A stretch of DNA of 64,000 nucleotides from Candidatus Saccharimonadales bacterium (lineage in GTDB: Bacteria > Patescibacteriota > Saccharimonadia > Saccharimonadales > EFPC-124): contig JBOHNX010000001.1 of NCBI GenBank assembly GCA_050730875.1, positions 425,972 through 489,971 of the forward strand, given 5' to 3'. Positions 769 to 49,081 of this stretch are shown here, in pieces. Below the pieces are notes generated by a model that was not told the DNA's origin, did no database searches, and saw nothing but the letters and a program-made list of their open reading frames with translations. Made by a program: the position numbers and the translations under genes. Within the stretch, counting starts at the first letter, position 1; each line of letters opens with the position of its first letter.

Positions 769-904
769 GCGTATACGTCCATATCTGCACAGATATGCTG
801 ATGAGTCCAAAAGGACGAAACGTGTTTTGGTCGCTCGGCAACATTTGCTATACGGCAAATGCTCGCTCCGCCAAGCAAGGATTCCGTAAACTGCCACTGG
901 CAGT

Positions 905-6921: not shown

Positions 6922-6950
6922 TTTACAACATGACAATAATTACCTATAGT
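6922..6950 (+). promoter_or_regulatory. Sigma70-like promoter of cassette B (TTTACA-17 nt-TATAGT)
   Basis: -35 at 6922-6927, 17-nt spacer, -10 at 6945-6950. 65 nt upstream of GTG 7015. Confidence 0.4.
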
Positions 6951-7014
6951 ACGCAAGCATAAGGCCTGGGAAAACTTTTCGGGTCTTTTGTTTTTACCAC
7001 AGGGGAGGAACGCT

Positions 7015-7332
7015 GTGAGCGTCATCTGTACCGAAGGAAAAATCACGCTTCGTTTCGATCAGCCCATCCTGGAAGACGAGGAGTTCCTGGCTCAGCCGCC
7101 GTCAGCCGTTCTACTGGTTGACGGCCGCAAAGCGAATGTTCCGGTCAACACGACCGACGAGGCCTATGGTCAGCTCATCCAGATGCTGCTGGGACTCGGG
7201 CGCGACAAGGTCGATCGGATCATCGTTCACGTCGGCTCAATCGAGGTCTTCAAACAGCCGGGTGCAAACCCTCTGCTCAACGAGCTGATCGAAGCCCACG
7301 TCCACAACCTCTACGAGAGCCTGGCCGCCTGA
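7015..7332 (+). CDS. Hypothetical protein, high-G+C cassette B (105 aa)
   Basis: ORF track 6988..7332. I prefer GTG 7015, which lies 5 nt after GGGGAGGA. Spot count 38/60 G+C at 7141-7200. No family recognised. Confidence 0.6.
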   Translation: MSVICTEGKITLRFDQPILEDEEFLAQPPSAVLLVDGRKANVPVNTTDEAYGQLIQMLLGLGRDKVDRIIVHVGSIEVFKQPGANPLLNELIEAHVHNLYESLAA

Positions 7333-7346
7333 AACGCACGTTGCGA

Positions 7347-7371
7347 AGGGTGGCTCCCTGCGAGCCACTCT
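7347..7371 (+). terminator. GC-rich hairpin after cassette B ORF (no U-tract)
   Basis: AGGGTGGCTC cctgc GAGCCACTCT, 15 nt after the TGA stop. Confidence 0.4.
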
Positions 7372-7389
7372 CCAACACTCCCCTGTGGT

Positions 7390-11102: not shown

Positions 11103-11130
11103 TTGAAATTTAATTTTAATATGCTATAGT
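11103..11130 (+). promoter_or_regulatory. Sigma70-like promoter of cassette C (TTGAAA-16 nt-TATAGT)
   Basis: -35 at 11103-11108, 16-nt spacer, -10 at 11125-11130. About 100 nt upstream of GTG 11230. Confidence 0.4.
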
Positions 11131-11150
11131 TTGCTCTTGTACGACGACGA

Positions 11151-11199
11151 AAGCTCGAGCGAACATTCTGTCATTTGTTTCCAGCTCGAGTTTTTGTTT
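11151..11199 (+). promoter_or_regulatory. Leader stem-loop followed by T-run (terminator/attenuator-like) in cassette C 5' region
   Basis: AAGCTCGAGC (11151-11160) pairs with GCTCGAGTTT (11184-11193) around a 23-nt loop, then TTTTTGTTT. Confidence 0.3.
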
Positions 11200-11229
11200 G
11201 ACCCGCACCTACACAGAAAGAGGTACAAC

Positions 11230-11970
11230 GTGTGCCCGAACCACTCTCAGCCCGACCCGACCCAGCAGTACGAGCACCACGAGCTGCCGGCGTCTCCCAC
11301 CCAGTGGGGGCCGCCACCGCAGCCGGCCCCGCCAGCCAAGTCCCGTGTGGGGCTGATCCTGGGGCTCGTGGGAGGTTTCCTCGCGCTGTTACTCGTCGTC
11401 AGTGGCGGTGTCGCCTTCGCCCTGAGTGGCGGAGACGAGCCGAAGCCGCCCGTCGGTCCGTCGGCCCAGCCGCCGAGCGAGACGCCCAGCGCCTCGCCGA
11501 CGCCGTCCGAGTCACCGACCATGAGCCCGGCGGAACGCGCCGACAGCTACATGAACTCGTGGCTCGACGCGGCCGGCCTCTCCGGCACTCCGGTGGTCCT
11601 CGTGACCACCGACCAGGAGTACACGTGCGGTGACGCCGTCAAGTACAACGGTGACGACGAGAACGCTCGACCTGTCGACCAGTGCGGCGGGAAGTTCTAC
11701 GTCATGGAGGCAGCCTTCTTCGCGAAGGACCTCGCCGGTGTGGACGCCGTGACCACGATGGAGATGTCCTACTACATCCTGGCCAAGAACGGCCTCGACA
11801 TCACCGACGCGACCGCGTCCTGCTTGTCAGGCGCGACCGTGGCCGATGCCGAGGAGCAGTTCCTCTCCCACGAAGACGCAGTCAAGGTGGGCGCGGAGTA
11901 CAACAAGTCGGGTCTCCTGGAGACCTTCGCGCACGGCTACAAGAACGGCGCGAAGTCCTGCTTCGAGTAA
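11230..11970 (+). CDS. Hypothetical membrane-anchored protein, high-G+C cassette C (246 aa): Pro-rich N-terminus, one TM, Cys-containing C-terminal domain
   Basis: ORF track 11131..11970. I prefer GTG 11230 after AGAAAGAGG. Features: PPPQPAPPAK, TM LILGLVGGFLALLLVVSGGVAFAL, PS-rich linker. Spot count 48/60 G+C at 11281-11340. Confidence 0.65.
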   Translation: MCPNHSQPDPTQQYEHHELPASPTQWGPPPQPAPPAKSRVGLILGLVGGFLALLLVVSGGVAFALSGGDEPKPPVGPSAQPPSETPSASPTPSESPTMSPAERADSYMNSWLDAAGLSGTPVVLVTTDQEYTCGDAVKYNGDDENARPVDQCGGKFYVMEAAFFAKDLAGVDAVTTMEMSYYILAKNGLDITDATASCLSGATVADAEEQFLSHEDAVKVGAEYNKSGLLETFAHGYKNGAKSCFE

Positions 11971-11977
11971 CCGACGT

Positions 11978-12006
11978 GAGGGTGGGGGCCCCGCGCCCCC
12001 ACCCTC
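11978..12006 (+). terminator. Perfect 12-bp GC hairpin after cassette C ORF (no U-tract)
   Basis: GAGGGTGGGGGC (11978-11989), loop CCCGC, GCCCCCACCCTC (11995-12006). Starts 8 nt after TAA. Confidence 0.5.
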
Positions 12007-12043
12007 GCACAAACAAAGTCGTCGTACGACTTTCCAAGAATTT

Positions 12044-12082
12044 AAAAGACGCATCTTTTACGGATGCGTCTTCTTTTATTTT
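12044..12082. terminator. Bidirectional intrinsic terminator
   Basis: AAGACGCATC (12046-12055) / GATGCGTCTT (12063-12072), flanked by an A-run and CTTTTATTTT. Downstream of the minus-strand gene ending at 12094. Confidence 0.65.
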
Positions 12083-16402: not shown

Positions 16403-16930
16403 TTATCGTAAAGTGAATATCTTTCGTCCATAAACAAGCAGTACCGCGGCTACTGCACAGGCAAAACCACCGAGTACATCGATAGGCGTATGCACCAGTG
16501 CAACAACCCTGCCGGTGGCCACCAAAACACTTAGACCAAGCAGTGTTAATGCGAGTGGCCGATTTTTGGTACTCGCCCACACAATGGCTGTAATCGTAAA
16601 AACAAGCAGCGCGTGATCGGACGGAAAGCCGGGGTTATTAAGATAAGCGGCCCTGGGCGCTTCACCAAGCTCCTGGAACGGCCGTTCGCCCTGATACAGC
16701 AAACTAATAAGCTTTGCCAAGAAGAGGGCAACTAGGCCAGCAAAAACGCCTCGCGCGATGCGCTCATAGCGGACCGTGGATGGCAACAAAAGCATTGCAA
16801 CGCCGCCAATCAATACAATTGGTATTACCAACCAGTCGGCGAGGATACGAATAAGTACGTCTTCGAACATGACTATATAAAGCATACCGCTGCCAGCCCG
16901 CTTTGCAAACGGGTATAGCATTCCTGCCAC
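16403..16930 (-). CDS. PAP2 family phosphatase
   Basis: Motifs YQGERPF, FPSDH, GRVVALVHTPIDVLGG. The start is GTG 16930 or ATG 16921, and both lie inside a palindrome arm. Confidence 0.8.
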   Translation of the reverse strand: MAGMLYPFAKRAGSGMLYIVMFEDVLIRILADWLVIPIVLIGGVAMLLLPSTVRYERIARGVFAGLVALFLAKLISLLYQGERPFQELGEAPRAAYLNNPGFPSDHALLVFTITAIVWASTKNRPLALTLLGLSVLVATGRVVALVHTPIDVLGGFACAVAAVLLVYGRKIFTLR

Positions 16931-17070
16931 AAAACATGTCTTTTGGGTGATGAACCGGACGAGTAAGAATAGGTCAGACTGAGTGAAGCATATCTGGATA
17001 CGGTGAACGAAGGCTGGCTTATTCTGGCCGTCCGGGCGCAGCCAAAAGGGCGTGTTTTGTGGCAGGAATG
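16919..17070. repeat. About 150-bp imperfect palindrome spanning the divergent PAP2/LssY-like gene starts
   Basis: Perfect 18-bp arms CATTCCTGCCACAAAACA (16919-16936) / TGTTTTGTGGCAGGAATG (17053-17070). Pairing continues inward (TTTTGG/CCAAAA, CCGGACG..AGAATA / TATTCT..CGTCCGG). Confidence 0.7.
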
Positions 17071-17077
17071 CTATATA

Positions 17078-31077: not shown

Positions 31078-31152
31078 TGGCGAGTGGCCAAGCGGTAAGG
31101 CGCCTGACTCTGGATCAGGAGATCGTAGGTTCGAATCCTACCTCGCCAGCCA
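31078..31152 (+). tRNA. tRNA-Gln (anticodon CTG)
   Basis: Hand fold: acceptor TGGCGAG/CTCGCCA, anticodon stem CCTGA/TCAGG with loop CTCTGGA, T arm GTAGG-TTCGAAT-CCTAC, encoded CCA. Confidence 0.88.
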
Positions 31153-31239: not shown

Positions 31240-31308
31240 TCCTATATGCACATGCCTGAAAAAGTTGAAGAAAACCTTAAAAGCCACGAATTCTCTTAAG
31301 AAGTGGAG

Positions 31309-31336
31309 AGGCCCCCGGCTGTGTAGCCGGGGGCCT
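31309..31336 (-). terminator. Perfect 12-bp GC hairpin downstream of cassette D ORF
   Basis: AGGCCCCCGGCT gtgt AGCCGGGGGCCT. A second hairpin CAGACGC/GCGTCTG lies at 31374-31392, nearer the stop. Confidence 0.5.
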
Positions 31337-31403
31337 GGTAGTAGTGGATGAGCACTCGGGCCCAGGGGTTGGTCAGACGCTCAGGGCGTCTGGCGGCGGC
31401 GGG

Positions 31404-31712
31404 TCACTTCCACTGGATGTAGGACGCCGTGGCCCGGGAGCTGCTGTTGCAGAACCGGGTATCCCACCACGAGACGTAGCGGGGGAACCACGGCCCATAC
31501 ACCGTGTACGTGAAGTGGGAACCGATCACCTTGCACTGGACGGCGAGACGGGTCTCGCGGCCTTCGTAACTGCAACCGCCACCACCGGAGTTCCAGTAGA
31601 CCTCGGCCCGACAGGTATGAGCCTGGGCCGGCGTAGCGCCGAAGGCCATGGTACCACCCACGAGAGCGAATGACATCAGGGCGGTGGCGACGAACTTCTT
31701 GGTGCGTCTCAC
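31404..31712 (-). CDS. Small secreted Cys-containing protein, high-G+C cassette D (102 aa)
   Basis: Track ORF 31404..31775. I prefer GTG 31710-31712 after GGAAGGGA. Signal peptide RRTKKFVATALMSFALVGGTMAFGATPAQA|HT. Mature part has 4 Cys and is Trp/Tyr-rich. Spot count 38/60 G+C at 31501-31560. Confidence 0.65.
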   Translation of the reverse strand: MRRTKKFVATALMSFALVGGTMAFGATPAQAHTCRAEVYWNSGGGGCSYEGRETRLAVQCKVIGSHFTYTVYGPWFPRYVSWWDTRFCNSSSRATASYIQWK

Positions 31713-31782
31713 AGGAGTTCCCTTCCACTGGGGGGTTGCATGGGTATGGCCAGCGCGCAGCCGACGTACGCCCATGCAAATT

Positions 31783-31798
31783 AGCGACGATCGTCGCT
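31783..31798. promoter_or_regulatory. Perfect 16-bp palindrome in cassette D leader (operator-like)
   Basis: AGCGACGATCGTCGCT lies 11-26 nt downstream of the predicted -10 on the minus strand. Confidence 0.3.
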
Positions 31799-31808
31799 CG
31801 TGCAGTCA

Positions 31809-35672: not shown

Positions 35673-35701
35673 TTGACATTTTTGTCCATAGATGTTATTA
35701 T
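35673..35701 (+). promoter_or_regulatory. Sigma70-like promoter of cassette E (TTGACA-17 nt-TATTAT)
   Basis: -35 at 35673-35678, 17-nt spacer, -10 at 35696-35701. 61 nt upstream of ATG 35762. Confidence 0.4.
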
Positions 35702-35735: not shown

Positions 35736-36058
35736 GTTTCCGTCTATCCGGGGAGTGCCGAATGGGTGAGATCGACCGCAAGATCCTTGAGACCATTGAC
35801 GAGCTCAGTGAAGTATACGTTTTCGCCTGGGAGGGTTACACACTCGAAGAGGTTCGCGTGAACATCGTCGAGCAGACCAAGTGGTTGCTCAGCGAAGAGG
35901 CCATCTCGCCGACACGTGCATTGCCGGGCGCTGTCCGCCTGCGCGTGAACGTCAAGGCAGTCGCCTTGGCGCGCAGCGTCGTGAGGCATCACAACATCCG
36001 CTACCTTACTCTACAGGTCGAGAAGCGGCTGGGGTACGCAGCCTGACAAGACGGAAAC
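35736..36058. repeat. 10-bp inverted repeat bracketing cassette E ORF
   Basis: GTTTCCGTCT at 35736-35745 and exact reverse complement AGACGGAAAC at 36049-36058, starting 3 nt after the stop. Confidence 0.65.
35762..36046 (+). CDS. Hypothetical protein, high-G+C cassette E (94 aa)
   Basis: Track ORF 35714..36046. I prefer ATG 35762 after GGGGAG. Spot count 40/60 G+C at 35881-35940 versus 30/60 in trmD (35041-35100). Opposite strand to the surrounding operon. Confidence 0.6.
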   Translation: MGEIDRKILETIDELSEVYVFAWEGYTLEEVRVNIVEQTKWLLSEEAISPTRALPGAVRLRVNVKAVALARSVVRHHNIRYLTLQVEKRLGYAA

Positions 36059-36091: not shown

Positions 36092-36108
36092 ATTTTCAAT
36101 TGCAAACA

Positions 36109-36136
36109 AAACGACCGGCACCAAGGCCGGTCGTTT
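36109..36136 (-). terminator. Intrinsic terminator downstream of KH-domain gene
   Basis: AAACGACCGGC / GCCGGTCGTTT 11-bp stem. The minus-strand reading is followed by TGTTTGC. Confidence 0.6.
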
Positions 36137-47139: not shown

Positions 47140-47295
47140 AGTCCCCTCTTTTTTACACGCATTTTTTATCTTAAAACATAAGCAGAATTAAGTAAAGTCT
47201 CTTAAGGAGTATCCGCGCCAGTCCCTACGCAGGCTCTCTGCGGCATCGAAGAGGCCCAGCGTCAGAAGGTTGGGTACGCTAATTTCGATAACCCA

Positions 47296-47784
47296 CTACT
47301 CACTGAAGCATTCGTTGCGCTCTGCTAGCAATGAGGCCATACCTCGCTGAACGGCGAGTGGGATAGACCCGAGATGTTCCTGAATCTCCTCGAAGGAGGC
47401 AAACTGCGCTACGCTGCGTCTAGAACGAAACTCGGTAGCTCTTTCAACGAGGGCGTGTATGCAGACGATGTCTTCCTTGGTTCCGGATGTGTCATCCACG
47501 AAGCTGTAGTGCACGATCGTTTGTCTCACTAGCTCGCGGTAACTGCGCAGCGCGAGGCCATACGAGTGCAGCCACCTCACGAGCTGGAGCGCGACATCGC
47601 TCGATTCATCAAGCTCTATGCATGGTACGTAGTAAAACTCCTCGCTGTAGCCGTTGTTCTCCTCGTCATTGTCGACTGAGCATAGCAGCAAGAACCTTCC
47701 AGCATCGAGCTTCATGTGCTCCTCGACTAAAAGATAGGCTATGGTGCGCTTTGGCGCGAATGGCTGCGTGAGATTCTTCTTCAC
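47296..47784 (-). CDS. Hypothetical protein in elevated-G+C island F
   Basis: 162-aa ORF (GTG start per track). Spot count 37/60 G+C at 47521-47580. No family recognised. Confidence 0.55.
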   Translation of the reverse strand: MKKNLTQPFAPKRTIAYLLVEEHMKLDAGRFLLLCSVDNDEENNGYSEEFYYVPCIELDESSDVALQLVRWLHSYGLALRSYRELVRQTIVHYSFVDDTSGTKEDIVCIHALVERATEFRSRRSVAQFASFEEIQEHLGSIPLAVQRGMASLLAERNECFSE

Positions 47785-47961
47785 AATGGCTTAATTGTAA
47801 TACGACATCGCACAACGAGCTAGATTACGGAGCGTAGCACAAGTCTGCTGCAGCTTACGAGCCTGGTCCGCTGTATCTGAAGCGTTCCTTTTACATGCTG
47901 TGCCCATACCGGGGCCGTAGTGGTTGTGGTTCTCATGCTGTTTAAAAATGGCGAGGTTGGC

Positions 47962-48690
47962 CTATTTCCCAGCCGCGGCTTCATCCACGAGCCATGTCAC
48001 ACGACCGCCCGCATCCTCGACCGTCTTGACAGCCTGGGCAATTGGCAACGCGCTGTCACTATTAAGCGCACGCCGAAGGGCCTCAGCCTTGCCAGCCCCC
48101 GCCGCCAAGACAAGACAGCTAGCCGCACCTTCAAGCGCTCGCAGGGTCAAGCTGATACGGTCCGGTGGGGGTTTTGGTGAGTTATGCACTGGCACAACCA
48201 AGCGTTGGGACGGCTCTGCGTCCGGATGATTAGGGAAGAGTGACAACGTATGACCATCTTCGCCTACACCGAGCCACACATGGTCAAGCCGGGGGCGGCC
48301 ATGCTTGTTGTGAGGAAGCCTTTCGAGTAGTGATTCGTAGTGCTCGGCTGCTTCCTCTGCACTAACGCCGCCCTTCGGTTCAAGACGTCCGGCCGCAGAA
48401 AGGTCGAGGTGTCGAAGAAGCACCTCGCTTGCTTGTCGCCAGTTAAAGTCGGGATTGTCAGAGAGGACGCATCGTTCATCGCCCATAAGCACGCGGACGT
48501 GTTGCCAATCCACGTCGTTCCGATATTCTTGGGTAATCACTCGATAAGCCGCGCCCGGTGACGTACCGCCCGCCAGTACCCATGTCGCGCTGCCGTTCGC
48601 GCGTATCGCAGCTTGCAGTTCAGCGATTGCCGTCTTCGCTGCCGCCCGAGCCACTGCTTCAACGTCCTTCAGTACTCGTACTTCAGCCAC
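47962..48690 (-). CDS. pgl: 6-phosphogluconolactonase
   Basis: LAGGTSP, MGDERCV, LGVGEDGHTLSLFP motifs. GTG start after GGAGGAAA. Confidence 0.88.
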   Translation of the reverse strand: MAEVRVLKDVEAVARAAAKTAIAELQAAIRANGSATWVLAGGTSPGAAYRVITQEYRNDVDWQHVRVLMGDERCVLSDNPDFNWRQASEVLLRHLDLSAAGRLEPKGGVSAEEAAEHYESLLERLPHNKHGRPRLDHVWLGVGEDGHTLSLFPNHPDAEPSQRLVVPVHNSPKPPPDRISLTLRALEGAASCLVLAAGAGKAEALRRALNSDSALPIAQAVKTVEDAGGRVTWLVDEAAAGK

Positions 48691-48759
48691 AAAGCTTTCC
48701 TCCTATCATTTAATGGTTACTATAACATCAAAGCGCCATTCGGCGAACACGCGCATCCT

Positions 48760-48951
48760 TCACTGTCCAAGGTCTGCGCCATAATACTGCTCTTTGCGCC
48801 GCCCCTCCTTCATCTCATGTTCCGCCTCTAGGCGAGCGATGTCCACGAAGGTCGTTATCGCAGGGGGCAGAATGGTCTCGGAGGAGACCAACGGGCGTCG
48901 ATCCACACCGTCCCAGGTGTTCGTGGGGACGTTCGGTAACGACGGGAACAA
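48760..48951 (-). CDS. Possible small ORF or 3' fragment of a truncated gene upstream of pgl
   Basis: High-G+C open frame ...VDRRPLVSSETILPPAITTFVDIARLEAEHEMKEGRRKEQYYGADLGQ. No ATG; the only candidate starts are a TTG at 48949-48951 and an internal GTG. The track extends it through tRNA-Ala, which is spurious. Confidence 0.3.
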   Translation of the reverse strand: MFPSLPNVPTNTWDGVDRRPLVSSETILPPAITTFVDIARLEAEHEMKEGRRKEQYYGADLGQ

Positions 48952-48962
48952 GATCCAAAAGC

Positions 48963-48990
48963 AAACCACGCCCGCTTCCGGGCGTGGTTT
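48963..48990 (-). terminator. Perfect 12-bp hairpin downstream of tRNA-Ala
   Basis: AAACCACGCCCG cttc CGGGCGTGGTTT. The minus-strand reading is followed by GCTTTTGG. Confidence 0.6.
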
Positions 48991-49004
48991 GAATGAGTGC
49001 GGTT

Positions 49005-49081
49005 TGGTGGAGCATATCGGATTCGAACCGATGACCTCTTCCATGCCATGGAAGCGCGCTAGCCAACTGCGCCAATGCCCC
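49005..49081 (-). tRNA. tRNA-Ala (anticodon GGC)
   Basis: Hand fold: acceptor GGGGCAT/ATGCTCC with G3:U70, D stem GCGC/GCGC, anticodon stem CTTCC/GGAAG with loop ATGGCAT, T arm ATCGG-TTCGAAT-CCGAT, encoded CCA. Confidence 0.88.

Follow-up and report, generated by a model that had tools for sequence, protein, structure and literature searches.

What are the short inverted repeats that bracket several small accessory genes in a Saccharimonadales (TM7) genome? The window analysed here, a stretch of 64,000 nucleotides, belongs to a metagenome-assembled genome (MAG), which was concordant with an independent Logan assembly over 10.7 kb. Five cassettes (A to E) lie antisense between housekeeping genes, and in three of them (B, C and E) a small GC-rich accessory gene is flanked by a perfect inverted repeat (IR) of 10-12 nt. 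The initial annotation had offered three possible meanings for these repeats, namely that they are the terminal inverted repeats of very small elements carrying cargo, that an insertion has separated the halves of a pre-existing host hairpin, or that they form a 5'/3' mRNA clamp occluding the Shine-Dalgarno sequence (SD).

Cassettes B, C and E and their flanking repeats

The features of the three cassettes are as follows, with positions counted in the window.

6922-6950, plus strand: B promoter, sigma-70-like, TTTACA-17-TATAGT, 10/12 consensus matches, outside the 5' arm
6961-6995, plus strand: B leader hairpin with U-tract (terminator-like or 5' stabiliser), directly 5' of the B 5' arm
6996-7007, plus strand: B 5' arm ACCACAGGGGAG, overlapping the SD GGGGAGGA
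7015-7332, plus strand: B ORF, GTG start, 105 aa, GC3 0.74, an ORFan identical to NCBI ACREGJ_02400
7348-7370, plus strand: B 3' GC-rich hairpin without U-tract, between stop codon and 3' arm
7378-7389, plus strand: B 3' arm CTCCCCTGTGGT, anti-SD, 12/12 match to the 5' arm
11103-11130, plus strand: C promoter, TTGAAA-16-TATAGT with TG extension; the 5' arm starts 8 nt past the -10 hexamer, approximately at the predicted transcript start
11139-11148, plus strand: C 5' arm GTACGACGAC, kept with compensatory changes in two relatives (L001 and L002)
11230-11970, plus strand: C ORF, GTG start, 246 aa, GC3 0.88, diverged orthologue of the lipoprotein-like cargo of L001 and L002
11978-12006, plus strand: C 3' GC-rich hairpin without U-tract
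12018-12027, plus strand: C 3' arm GTCGTCGTAC, 10/10 match to the 5' arm
12046-12072, plus strand: intrinsic terminator of the host type, past the C 3' arm
35673-35701, plus strand: E promoter, TTGACA-17-TATTAT, 11/12 consensus matches
35736-35745, plus strand: E 5' arm GTTTCCGTCT, 4 nt 5' of the SD GGGGAG (35750-35755)
35762-36046, plus strand: E ORF, ATG start, 94 aa, GC3 0.76, antisense between a KH-domain gene and trmD
36049-36058, plus strand: E 3' arm AGACGGAAAC, 10/10 match to the 5' arm, 2 nt past the stop codon
36059-36128, no strand assigned: two hairpins that follow the E 3' arm; the host KH gene has its conserved terminator, which is intact, in the second (~36100-36128)

The repeats were found exactly where they had been annotated, and their placement upstream of the SD or leader and downstream of the stop codon or hairpin, with the B arm overlapping the SD, was as described. 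The 5' arm of B lies over the SD, 7 nt before the GTG start, and that of C at the start of the leader; in both cassettes the 3' arm follows the GC hairpin. The pairing breaks off abruptly at both sides of all arms, every arm sequence is found a single time on each strand of the 64-kb window, and the arms of B, C and E have no core in common. The earlier statement that each pair is different holds within the window, but relatives repeatedly have a purine-rich arm type with an SD (xxACAGxGxAGG) that the B arm resembles.

All of these are genuine coding genes, and their codon usage looks foreign (GC3 0.74-0.88 vs 0.52 in host genes). Two of the three cargo proteins (105, 246 and 94 aa) look soluble, and the C protein combines a TM anchor with a Pro-rich linker and an orphan domain at its C terminus. 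The five cargo proteins of the window gave nothing in Pfam and PHROGs, and the sole Pfam match among the relatives' cargo was a weak Zn_peptidase in L001. In homologue searches the B and C proteins matched only themselves, the cargo being unique among 5.8e9 and 1.84e9 proteins, and an exhaustive HMMER search with C returned only low-complexity N-terminal matches, so that an actinobacterial donor could not be shown. The region had no match in the E. coli genome, no Rfam family was found over the cassettes or over the related elements upstream of pheS described below, and a literature search for a described Saccharibacteria cassette system gave nothing relevant. Some cassettes are followed by a hammerhead ribozyme; that of cassette A is at 772-826.

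The repeats might be chance matches chosen post hoc. Perfect IRs that are 10 nt or longer and spaced 100-2500 apart number 183 in the window, as many as expected at random, and thus only the position of the cassette IRs is informative. When generous 120-nt flanks of the five cassette ORFs were scanned, the longest IR was 5 nt in A, 12 nt in B, 10 nt in C, 6 nt in D and 10 nt in E; a mismatched control pair (D left flank vs E right flank) also gave 10 nt. With random placements the probability of an IR of at least 10 nt was 0.013 and that of three out of five cassettes 2.3e-5, in line with the earlier claim that three of five is not chance, for which the estimate of 1 in 600 had the right order. 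When the predicted UTRs set the limits of the windows, the B, C and E repeats had a joint probability of ~7e-9. Given that P is ~2e-5 even with generous windows and that the feature was replicated independently, with covariation, in other genomes (see below), a chance origin is scarcely credible and is as good as refuted by the covariation across genomes. Such repeats are not a universal feature, cassettes A and D and several cassettes in relatives being without them.

Conservation of pairing in related genomes

Three genomes have orthologous cargo at the syntenic site that is enclosed by arms of the C type, with the arm pairs GTACGACGAC/GTCGTCGTAC in the window, GTACGACGATCTG/CAGATCGTCGTAC in L001 and GTACGGCGG/CCGCCGTAC in L002, which differ by two A-T to G-C double (compensatory) changes. 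The cargo evolves fast: it is only 60% identical between L001 and L002 (pheS 95%) and barely alignable to the window protein, and the 5' arm begins 7-8 nt past the -10 hexamer in 3/3 genomes, that is, at the predicted RNA 5' end. The C cassette has been inherited vertically at one syntenic site in the three genomes. Metagenome and genome scans for closer relatives found none nearer than ~61-73% amino acid identity, and as a consequence B and E are without direct orthologues.

A larger family was found in the slot upstream of pheS, where arms of the form GACAGAG(T)AGG...CCT(A)CTCTGTC were kept in 8/8 loci: every locus with CTCTGTC ~122 nt upstream of pheS also has a perfect partner of 10-13 nt. 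The 5' arm covers the SD and the 3' arm is complementary to the SD region. In a covariation set of 9 sequences and 13 pairs, 94% of the cells were paired, as compared with 34-56% in slid controls, and 5 pairs had changed on both sides, which was reached in 0/500 shuffles. The cargo within the same arm core ranges from 57 to 166 aa, and small hydrophobic TM peptides (57-66 aa) were seen only in these pheS-slot relatives. We also considered that the GACAGAG elements might be structured ncRNAs (RNase P, T-box), a candidate that was dropped in view of the SD-linked ORFs with a coding GC3 pattern on the other strand.

In the E slot, relatives carry unrelated cargo with their own 10/10 IR that includes the SD (ACGGAGGAGC in L163 and GCAGAGGAGG in L167). 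One further genome (L003) also has a 3'-UTR segment complementary to its own SD region, and another (L026) has two different, staggered 3'-UTR segments complementary to one SD-bearing 5' segment. In a wider survey, such IRs were enriched in high-GC3 ORFs (7/148 vs 11/1309 native ORFs, p = 0.0012), and in 5/7 of the IR-bearing high-GC3 ORFs 2-7 nt separate the end of the arm from the start codon (p = 0.0017). The IRs are thus non-random in position, their complementarity is kept through compensatory substitutions in relatives and the 5' arm prefers the SD.

A candidate mRNA clamp and its alternatives

We consider a cis-acting clamp between the 5'UTR and the 3'UTR of the same mRNA to be the best reading of the B, C and E repeats, with a somewhat better than even prospect of being correct. 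Each IR would be the DNA image of a long-range helix in a single mRNA, in which a 5'UTR segment pairs with a 3'UTR segment of its own transcript and the message is closed into a loop. The 5' partner would be the SD itself in B, the bases just before the SD in E and the first bases of the transcript in C. Such a helix may mask the ribosome-binding site or the 5' end, and the masked accessory gene might then be translationally quiet, its mRNA shielded from end-dependent RNases, or both. Opening of the helix, whether through trimming of the 3' end, RNase III, ribosomes, temperature or a trans factor, would end this state.

The arrangement of the arms is compatible with this idea. The predicted promoters of B, C and E precede the 5' arms, the 5' arm mostly covers the SD (or, in C, the predicted transcript start) and the 3' arm comes after the stop codon and before the host terminator; the C 3' arm falls inside the predicted transcript since the host-type terminator is downstream of it. 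RNAfold put the arm-arm helix into the MFE structures of B, C and E and into their centroid structures as well. Of the three meanings proposed at the outset the clamp is accordingly the one best supported, by the compensatory changes, by the 5' arms lying preferentially on the SD and by the position of both arms in the predicted transcript. The 5' arm of C does not cover the SD. We infer from the sequences that both arms are probably co-transcribed, that the transcripts end as predicted and that the pairing represses translation or stabilises the RNA. The GC hairpin before the 3' arm in B and C, or the terminator-like hairpin between promoter and 5' arm in B, could however exclude an arm from most transcripts. 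For B and E the clamp is supported by analogy, direct orthologues being available for C only.

The helix might instead work in the host-sense RNA, given that an IR is strand-symmetric. Operon read-through (pheST to murI, rpsP-KH to trmD) would cross the cassette antisense, and the repeat would fold the antisense cassette into a closed domain, either so that RNase III can process it or as insulation for the host genes on both sides. Relatives that have no cassette show these host genes abutting or in the same orientation (pheT overlaps murI in L001, and 157 nt separate KH from trmD in L162), and the RNase III gene is in the same operon in relatives. The few extensions of the helices by G.U pairs favour neither strand, those of L105 and L111 being on the pheS-sense strand (antisense to the cassette) and those of L094 on the cassette-sense strand. 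Within the helices G.U pairs are almost absent (2/117 cells), and perfect, abruptly ended Watson-Crick duplexes are expected equally for a constraint at the DNA level and for one on RNA; a crude duplex-energy test (RNAduplex) gave no difference between sense and antisense, its energies being too permissive. What makes the host-sense reading unlikely is that the 5' arm is systematically placed on the cassette's own SD or transcript start, which is meaningless for an antisense RNA, that an intact host terminator stands between KH and cassette E, and that both anti-SD partners of L026 are in the 3' UTR of the cassette-sense strand.

Alternatively, the repeats could act in the DNA as recombination sites of an exchangeable cassette, either as terminal inverted repeats of a non-autonomous element or as recombinase sites at which cargo is swapped in fixed slots. 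The arms coincide with boundaries in GC content, they are perfect and end abruptly, and very different cargo is found within the same arm core of the pheS slot. Moreover, L083 has two cassettes in tandem, close relatives differ in the presence of cassettes (e.g. a small cassette in L001 vs L002, an indel compatible with insertion or deletion), and cassettes keep a GC3 near 0.9 across lineages, as would fit repeated re-acquisition. DNA alignment of cassette interiors across genomes was uninformative. We nevertheless regard recombination sites as quite unlikely. No target-site duplication was found at the arm flanks (TTTTT/CTCTT in B, CTCTT/GACTT in C, GCGAA/GGCGT in E), arms and cargo are single copy in the window, the cargo proteins are unique in the databases searched and the C cargo is orthologous and vertically inherited at its one syntenic site, which together speak against the tiny cargo-carrying elements first proposed. 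The arms differ between slots, with no common recombinase core besides the SD, and no recombinase was noticed. The 3' arm of the small L001 cassette straddles the indel boundary and is therefore partly host sequence, and the double partner in L026 is sensible for RNA but not for a DNA recombination site. An integron cassette carries an attC site with R''/R' cores (RYYYAAC/GTTRRRY) and has intI nearby; the B, C and E arm sequences do not fit these cores, and no array was seen except for the one tandem pair in L083.

Two further readings involve DNA. If the repeats flanked invertons, the segment with SD and ORF would flip relative to a fixed external promoter as an on/off switch. The promoters do lie outside the repeats in B, C and E, the length and perfection of the IRs are typical for invertons and homogenisation by recombination would also give seemingly compensatory changes. 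Nonetheless, among the genomes and assemblies the orientation was constant wherever it was readable (9/9 pheS-slot members, all with the start codon beside the pheS-proximal arm, 3/3 C-type members, and MAG and Logan assembly over their 10.7 kb), no invertase core is shared by the arms of B, C and E, and L026 has two staggered partners, which leaves an inverton very unlikely. MITE-like elements and invertons resemble the cassettes in having short perfect IRs around a few hundred bp, but no target-site duplication, multicopy family, orientation polymorphism or shared recombinase core is seen here, and the cassettes, unlike such elements, are syntenic and vertically inherited. The arms could also be the halves of a pre-existing host hairpin, e.g. 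a terminator, into whose loop a cassette was inserted. Several pheS-slot members have an A-rich run before the distal arm, and L018 has a plain terminator hairpin 46 nt upstream of pheS with ACAGAG...CTCTGT in its stem. This hairpin, considered as the empty form of the pheS slot, was judged compatible with chance, being a single 6-mer coincidence among ~100 loci. The empty B site in L001, where pheT and murI overlap, has no hairpin, nothing but the KH terminator is present at the empty E site of L162, a terminator that in the window still stands intact next to cassette E, and the flanks of the window arms lack the A-run/U-run layout of a terminator. A split hairpin is thus highly improbable, and this part of the earlier proposal is not supported.

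Known systems and biological significance

To our knowledge, only a handful of individually dissected cases of 5'UTR-3'UTR pairing within one bacterial mRNA are known. In the icaR mRNA of Staphylococcus aureus a 3'UTR UCCCCUG motif pairs with the SD region, for which repression of translation and RNase III cleavage were shown experimentally (PMC3868564). The mRNA clamp suggested for the cassettes would likewise use a C-rich anti-SD motif in the 3' UTR (CUCCCCUGUGGU in cassette B), in cis and over several hundred nt. A 3'-UTR complementary to the SD was found in B (12/12 over GGGGAG), L163, L167, the pheS-slot family, L003 and L026, whereas E only abuts the SD (4 nt away) and in C the 5' partner is the transcript start. 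Compensatory substitutions were found in the C-type arms (window, L001 and L002) and in the pheS-slot family. The cassettes differ from icaR in that the evidence is from sequence, that the helices are short (10-12 bp), perfect and sharply bounded, and that the arrangement recurs on many unrelated accessory genes of one lineage.

Type I toxins are small and hydrophobic, typically <60 aa. In their full-length mRNAs the 3' end is paired with the 5' end or the SD, as in hok (tac/fbi; PMC9841398) and Helicobacter aapA1 (PMC6733600), and this end-pairing, which is kept by covariation, silences a potentially harmful small gene (PMC9841398, PMC6733600). Likenesses to the present cassettes are the long-distance 5'-3' helix predicted in the MFE and centroid folds, the covariation in relatives and the small hydrophobic peptides of the pheS-slot relatives, which are of the type I toxin kind. 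The cargos of the window are larger and are not typical type I toxins, no antisense RNA antitoxin was noticed and no Rfam family matched, and the cassettes are not known to undergo 3' processing, though some have a hammerhead ribozyme behind them. Ribonuclease access to the hbs mRNA of Bacillus subtilis is modulated by pairing of its two UTRs, which was mapped biochemically (PMC5737220). This fits cassette C, in which the first bases of the predicted transcript would be paired, but hbs is a single housekeeping case as compared with multiple orphan genes.

It is conceivable, though we put this forward only tentatively and think it more apt to be wrong than right, that soil Saccharimonadales possess a class of fast-evolving, persistently high-GC3 accessory genes that lie antisense in housekeeping operons and are systematically locked by 5'-3' end-pairing, sometimes followed by a hammerhead ribozyme. 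The pairing might then serve the whole lineage as a post-transcriptional safety catch on genes for host interaction or on toxin-like ones, in a bacterium that has very few regulators. In a radical version of the same idea, the arms would double as DNA sites for the exchange of cargo in fixed slots, an integron-like system of the CPR. The analysis also sharpens a separate puzzle, namely that GC3 of these genes is held at 0.75-0.9 in genomes of 49-55% GC, also under vertical inheritance.

With many unrelated orphan genes and covariation support in an uncultivated, genome-reduced episymbiont lineage, UTR end-pairing looks like a recurrent design principle. If confirmed, it would come with a simple search signature (an SD-bearing arm and an anti-SD arm past the stop codon) and with natural compensatory variants ready for testing, and it would give a handle on how CPR bacteria silence accessory or potentially toxic genes without classical regulators.

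Flanking inverted repeats of the GC-rich cassettes

The host belongs to the Saccharimonadales (TM7, Patescibacteria), and the best relatives of its pheT (50-61% amino acid identity) are found in Saccharimonadales MAGs. The window sequence is real; the cassette B protein matches NCBI ACREGJ_02400 at 100% identity (annotated as a hypothetical protein of Candidatus Saccharimonadales, on a 556-kb contig) and the independent Logan assembly SRR27067773 shows 100% identity across 10.7 kb that include cassettes B and C. The accessory genes A to E occupy five islands of 0.4-0.9 kb with 58-67% GC in a host of 49% GC. Perfect inverted repeats had been reported around B, C and E in the initial annotation, and all three pairs were found on reading the window. 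The half that precedes the ORF is called the 5' arm and the half after the stop codon the 3' arm.

Cassettes and their arms, with promoters predicted by consensus scans
270-780, cassette A
6996-7389, cassette B; 5' arm ACCACAGGGGAG (6996-7007), 3' arm CTCCCCTGTGGT (7378-7389), 12/12 match; promoter TTTACA-17-TATAGT (6922-6950)
11139-12027, cassette C; 5' arm GTACGACGAC (11139-11148), 3' arm GTCGTCGTAC (12018-12027), 10/10 match; promoter TTGAAA-16-TATAGT (11103-11130)
about 31300-31800, minus strand, cassette D
35736-36058, cassette E; 5' arm GTTTCCGTCT (35736-35745), 3' arm AGACGGAAAC (36049-36058), 10/10 match; promoter TTGACA-17-TATTAT (35673-35701)

The five cassette ORFs have a clear coding signature and a foreign-looking codon usage (GC3 0.74-0.88, compared with 0.51-0.53 for pheS, pheT and murI). 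Cassettes A, B, C and E are antisense to the host genes, each placed in a gap that runs from the start of one minus-strand gene to the end of its neighbour; B is flanked by pheT and murI, C by pheS and a small TM gene, and E lies within the rpsP-KH-trmD operon. No Pfam or PHROG family was found for any of the five cargo proteins, the B and C proteins had only self matches among 5.8e9 proteins, and an exhaustive HMMER search of the C protein against 1.84e9 representatives returned nothing beyond low-complexity matches in its Pro-rich N-terminal part. Since the proteins are orphan, no donor was found. The missing amelioration towards the GC3 of about 0.52 of the genome's own genes is a puzzle. 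A tRNA-Gln (31078-31152) followed by a tRNA-3'-end-like fragment (gggttcgaatccc, about 31228), which may be an integration scar, adjoins cassette D, and a second GC-rich block (47200-49000, 55-60% GC) with a 6-phosphogluconolactonase-like ORF abuts tRNA-Ala (49005-49081).

Each arm occurs once in the window, and no pair gains a further base pair on extension in either direction. Perfect inverted repeats of at least 10 nt with a spacing of 100-2500 numbered 183 in the window, which is close to random expectation, and it is the placement of the B, C and E repeats that is unusual rather than long perfect repeats as such. Within 120-nt ORF flanks the longest repeats were 5, 12, 10, 6 and 10 nt for A to E, and 1.3% of randomly placed intervals attained 10 nt, giving P = 2.3e-5 for at least 10 nt in three of five cassettes; the earlier claim that the repeats exceed chance was thereby upheld. 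When the search windows were limited to predicted UTRs the joint probability was about 7e-9. By far the longest inverted repeat in the window is a perfect 23-nt pair (TATAGCATTCCTGCCACAAAACA, 16914-16936 and 17053-17075) whose arms are 116 nt apart and lie between two divergent genes.

A strong sigma-70-like promoter is predicted upstream of every 5' arm of B, C and E. In B, a terminator-like hairpin with a U-tract (6961-6995) precedes the 5' arm, which overlaps the SD (GGGGAGGA, 7 nt upstream of the GTG start), and a GC hairpin without U-tract precedes the 3' arm. The 5' arm of C starts where the transcript is predicted to begin, 8 nt past the -10 hexamer, and a GC hairpin is followed by the 3' arm and a canonical host terminator (12046-12072). 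In E the 5' arm ends 4 nt upstream of the SD and the 3' arm begins 2 nt past the stop codon, ahead of two hairpins. Folding of the sense strands with RNAfold, a check proposed in the initial annotation, yielded the arm-arm helix for all three predicted transcripts, in the MFE structure as well as in the centroid. Leader hairpins with a U-tract lie between predicted promoter and SD in A (about 305-335), B (6961-6995) and C (about 11153-11200) and look like intrinsic terminators or attenuators, or very short sRNAs.

Corresponding slots in related genomes

The closest genome (L001, pheT 61% identical) carries at the syntenic C slot, in the same antisense orientation, a lipoprotein-like ORF (309 aa, 67% GC, GC3 0.90) bracketed by GTACGACGATCTG ... 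CAGATCGTCGTAC, and the L002 orthologue (306 aa) is bracketed by GTACGGCGG ... CCGCCGTAC. C-type arms differ by two A-T to G-C double changes, with the first five positions constant, and the 5' arm starts 7-8 nt past the -10 hexamer in all three genomes. The L001 and L002 cargo proteins are 60% identical (pheS 95%, pheT 86%, yajQ 89%); the window C protein is weakly alignable to them via a common CLSG-containing C-terminal domain, and the interior DNA of the cassette was not alignable across these genomes. Comparison of arms and cargo indicates that the C cassette is old and vertically inherited, with a fast-evolving protein and flank complementarity kept. GC3 is about 0.9 in both orthologues even though the cassette has been inherited vertically while pheT diverged by about 40%. 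L002 (7352-7397), whose pheS protein is 95% identical, lacks an 89-aa high-GC3 cassette that L001 (3130-3539) carries together with an AT-rich promoter of its own; this is a recent gain or loss, and no target-site duplication was found at this indel.

E-slot loci were obtained via TrmD homologues. The slot is empty in L162 (157-nt spacer with the KH terminator only), and two others hold unrelated ORFs: an antisense one of 114 aa in L163, bracketed by ACGGAGGAGC ... GCTCCTCCGT, and one of 127 aa (GC3 0.77) in L167, bracketed by GCAGAGGAGG ... CCTCCTCTGC. L165 and L166 have other genes in the slot, around which such repeats were not found. The KH-trmD spacer is a hot spot with different content in each of six relative loci (five distinct genomes; L164 repeats L163), and in L163 (8090-12251) four antisense orphan ORFs alternate with almost all genes of the rpsP-KH-trmD operon. 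One Saccharimonadales-type TrmD (P0056, 78% identical to that of the window) is filed in NCBI under Streptomyces caniscabiei, and the size of its contig (958 kb) suggests that the genome of an epibiont was assembled together with that of its actinobacterial host or was mislabelled with the host's name.

The slot orthologous to cassette A in L026 holds a two-ORF cassette whose SD-bearing 5' segment (ACCGAGAGAGGG) has two different 3'-UTR partners, CTCTCTCGGT (3 nt past the stop) and CCCTCTCTCG, followed by a hammerhead ribozyme. In the window a type III hammerhead (772-826, plus strand) directly follows the terminal hairpin of cassette A and is about 80 nt away from where ppa ends, with a full catalytic core (CUGAUGAG...CGAAAC) and a predicted GUC cleavage site at about 779/780; it scored 44.3 bits against Rfam RF00008, below the gathering threshold of 48.5 (local E = 3e-8). 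Downstream of ppa in both L026 and L005 a cassette is likewise followed by a similar hammerhead, and others occur in L023 and L134.

Recurrence and covariation of the arms

Among 161 related loci and the window, a survey for perfect repeats (10 nt or longer) around a GC-rich interval (contrast >0.12 at both edges and overall) yielded 21 inverted repeats, compared with 5 for the direct-repeat control (p = 1e-4). Many shared the form GACAGAG(T/G/C)(A/G)GG ... CTCTGTC just upstream of pheS. When pheS loci were ascertained by position alone, from a CTCTGTC lying about 122 nt before the gene, all of those with sufficient sequence (8/8) also had a perfect partner of 10-13 nt. Over nine non-redundant members and 13 pairs, 94% of cells were paired and both sides had changed in five pairs (10 cells); none of 500 shuffles matched this, slid registers were 34-56% paired, and G.U pairs were nearly absent.

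Read antisense to pheS, the arm nearer that gene is (CTTC)GACAGAGTAGGAG and contains an SD, with the start codon 5-10 nt on; the 5' arm of B (ACCACAGGGGAGG) resembles this type. The ORFs, several with a coding GC3 pattern, are small and mostly hydrophobic (homologous TM peptides of 57-59 aa in L107 and L111; L094, L109 and L126 likewise TM) or larger orphans (L083a, L083b, L017). L083 has two tandem bracketed units upstream of pheS (336-681 and 835-1169). A palindrome, GTTCTA-N8-TAGAAC, is conserved in L105, L107, L111 (about 2595-2620) and L094, where it separates the pheS promoter from the SD-bearing arm of the divergent cassette; it resembles an operator for a protein that binds DNA as a dimer.

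Across ORFs generally, the start-codon region (-60 to +3) and the region after the stop codon (+1 to +120) shared a perfect repeat of 10 nt or more in 7/148 high-GC3 ORFs and 11/1309 native ORFs (Fisher's exact test, p = 0.0012). In five of these seven the 5' arm ended 2-7 nt before the start codon (p = 0.0017) and so covers the SD. The feature is not universal, being absent from cassettes A and D, three of four L163 cassettes and L165.

Proposed pairing of mRNA ends and its alternatives

We lean towards a helix between the 5' and 3' UTRs, in which the 5' arm of the cassette mRNA, at the SD or transcript start, would pair in cis with the 3' arm in the 3' UTR. This is the mRNA clamp occluding the SD of the initial annotation, favoured among its three proposals on account of complementarity that vertically inherited loci have kept through compensatory change, the preference of the 5' arm for the SD or transcript start and the double partner in L026, together with the position of the 3' arm between stop codon and host terminator and the constant orientation. 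Our confidence is held down by the near absence of G.U pairs, by strand tests that favoured neither strand and by the hairpins of B and C, at which transcripts might end or be blocked short of an arm. That the same helix acts instead in host-sense read-through RNA is unlikely. Less probable again are DNA-level cassette boundaries or exchange sites. They would account for arms that are perfect and sharply bounded where the GC content changes, and for the puzzle of why GC3 stays high; however, there were no target-site duplications, extra copies, common core or sign of mobility, and the cargo of C has orthologues in other genomes, so that the proposal of terminal inverted repeats was not sustained.

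Invertons are improbable, given a constant orientation in every readable member and the agreement of two assemblies. A host hairpin split by insertion, the remaining earlier proposal, is very improbable, as the empty sites have no arm-arm hairpin: pheT and murI overlap at the B site of L001, and the single hairpin at the E site of L162 is the conserved KH terminator, which is intact beside E. Chance is scarcely credible, being excluded by replication in other genomes.

The preferred cis pairing of mRNA ends belongs to a mechanism class that is already known but rare, with analogues in icaR (PMC3868564), hbs (PMC5737220) and, among toxin mRNAs, the end-pairing of hok (PMC9841398) and aapA1 (PMC6733600). 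What is new is that it recurs, supported by covariation, on a class of orphan accessory genes with high GC3 that are inserted antisense in a CPR lineage.
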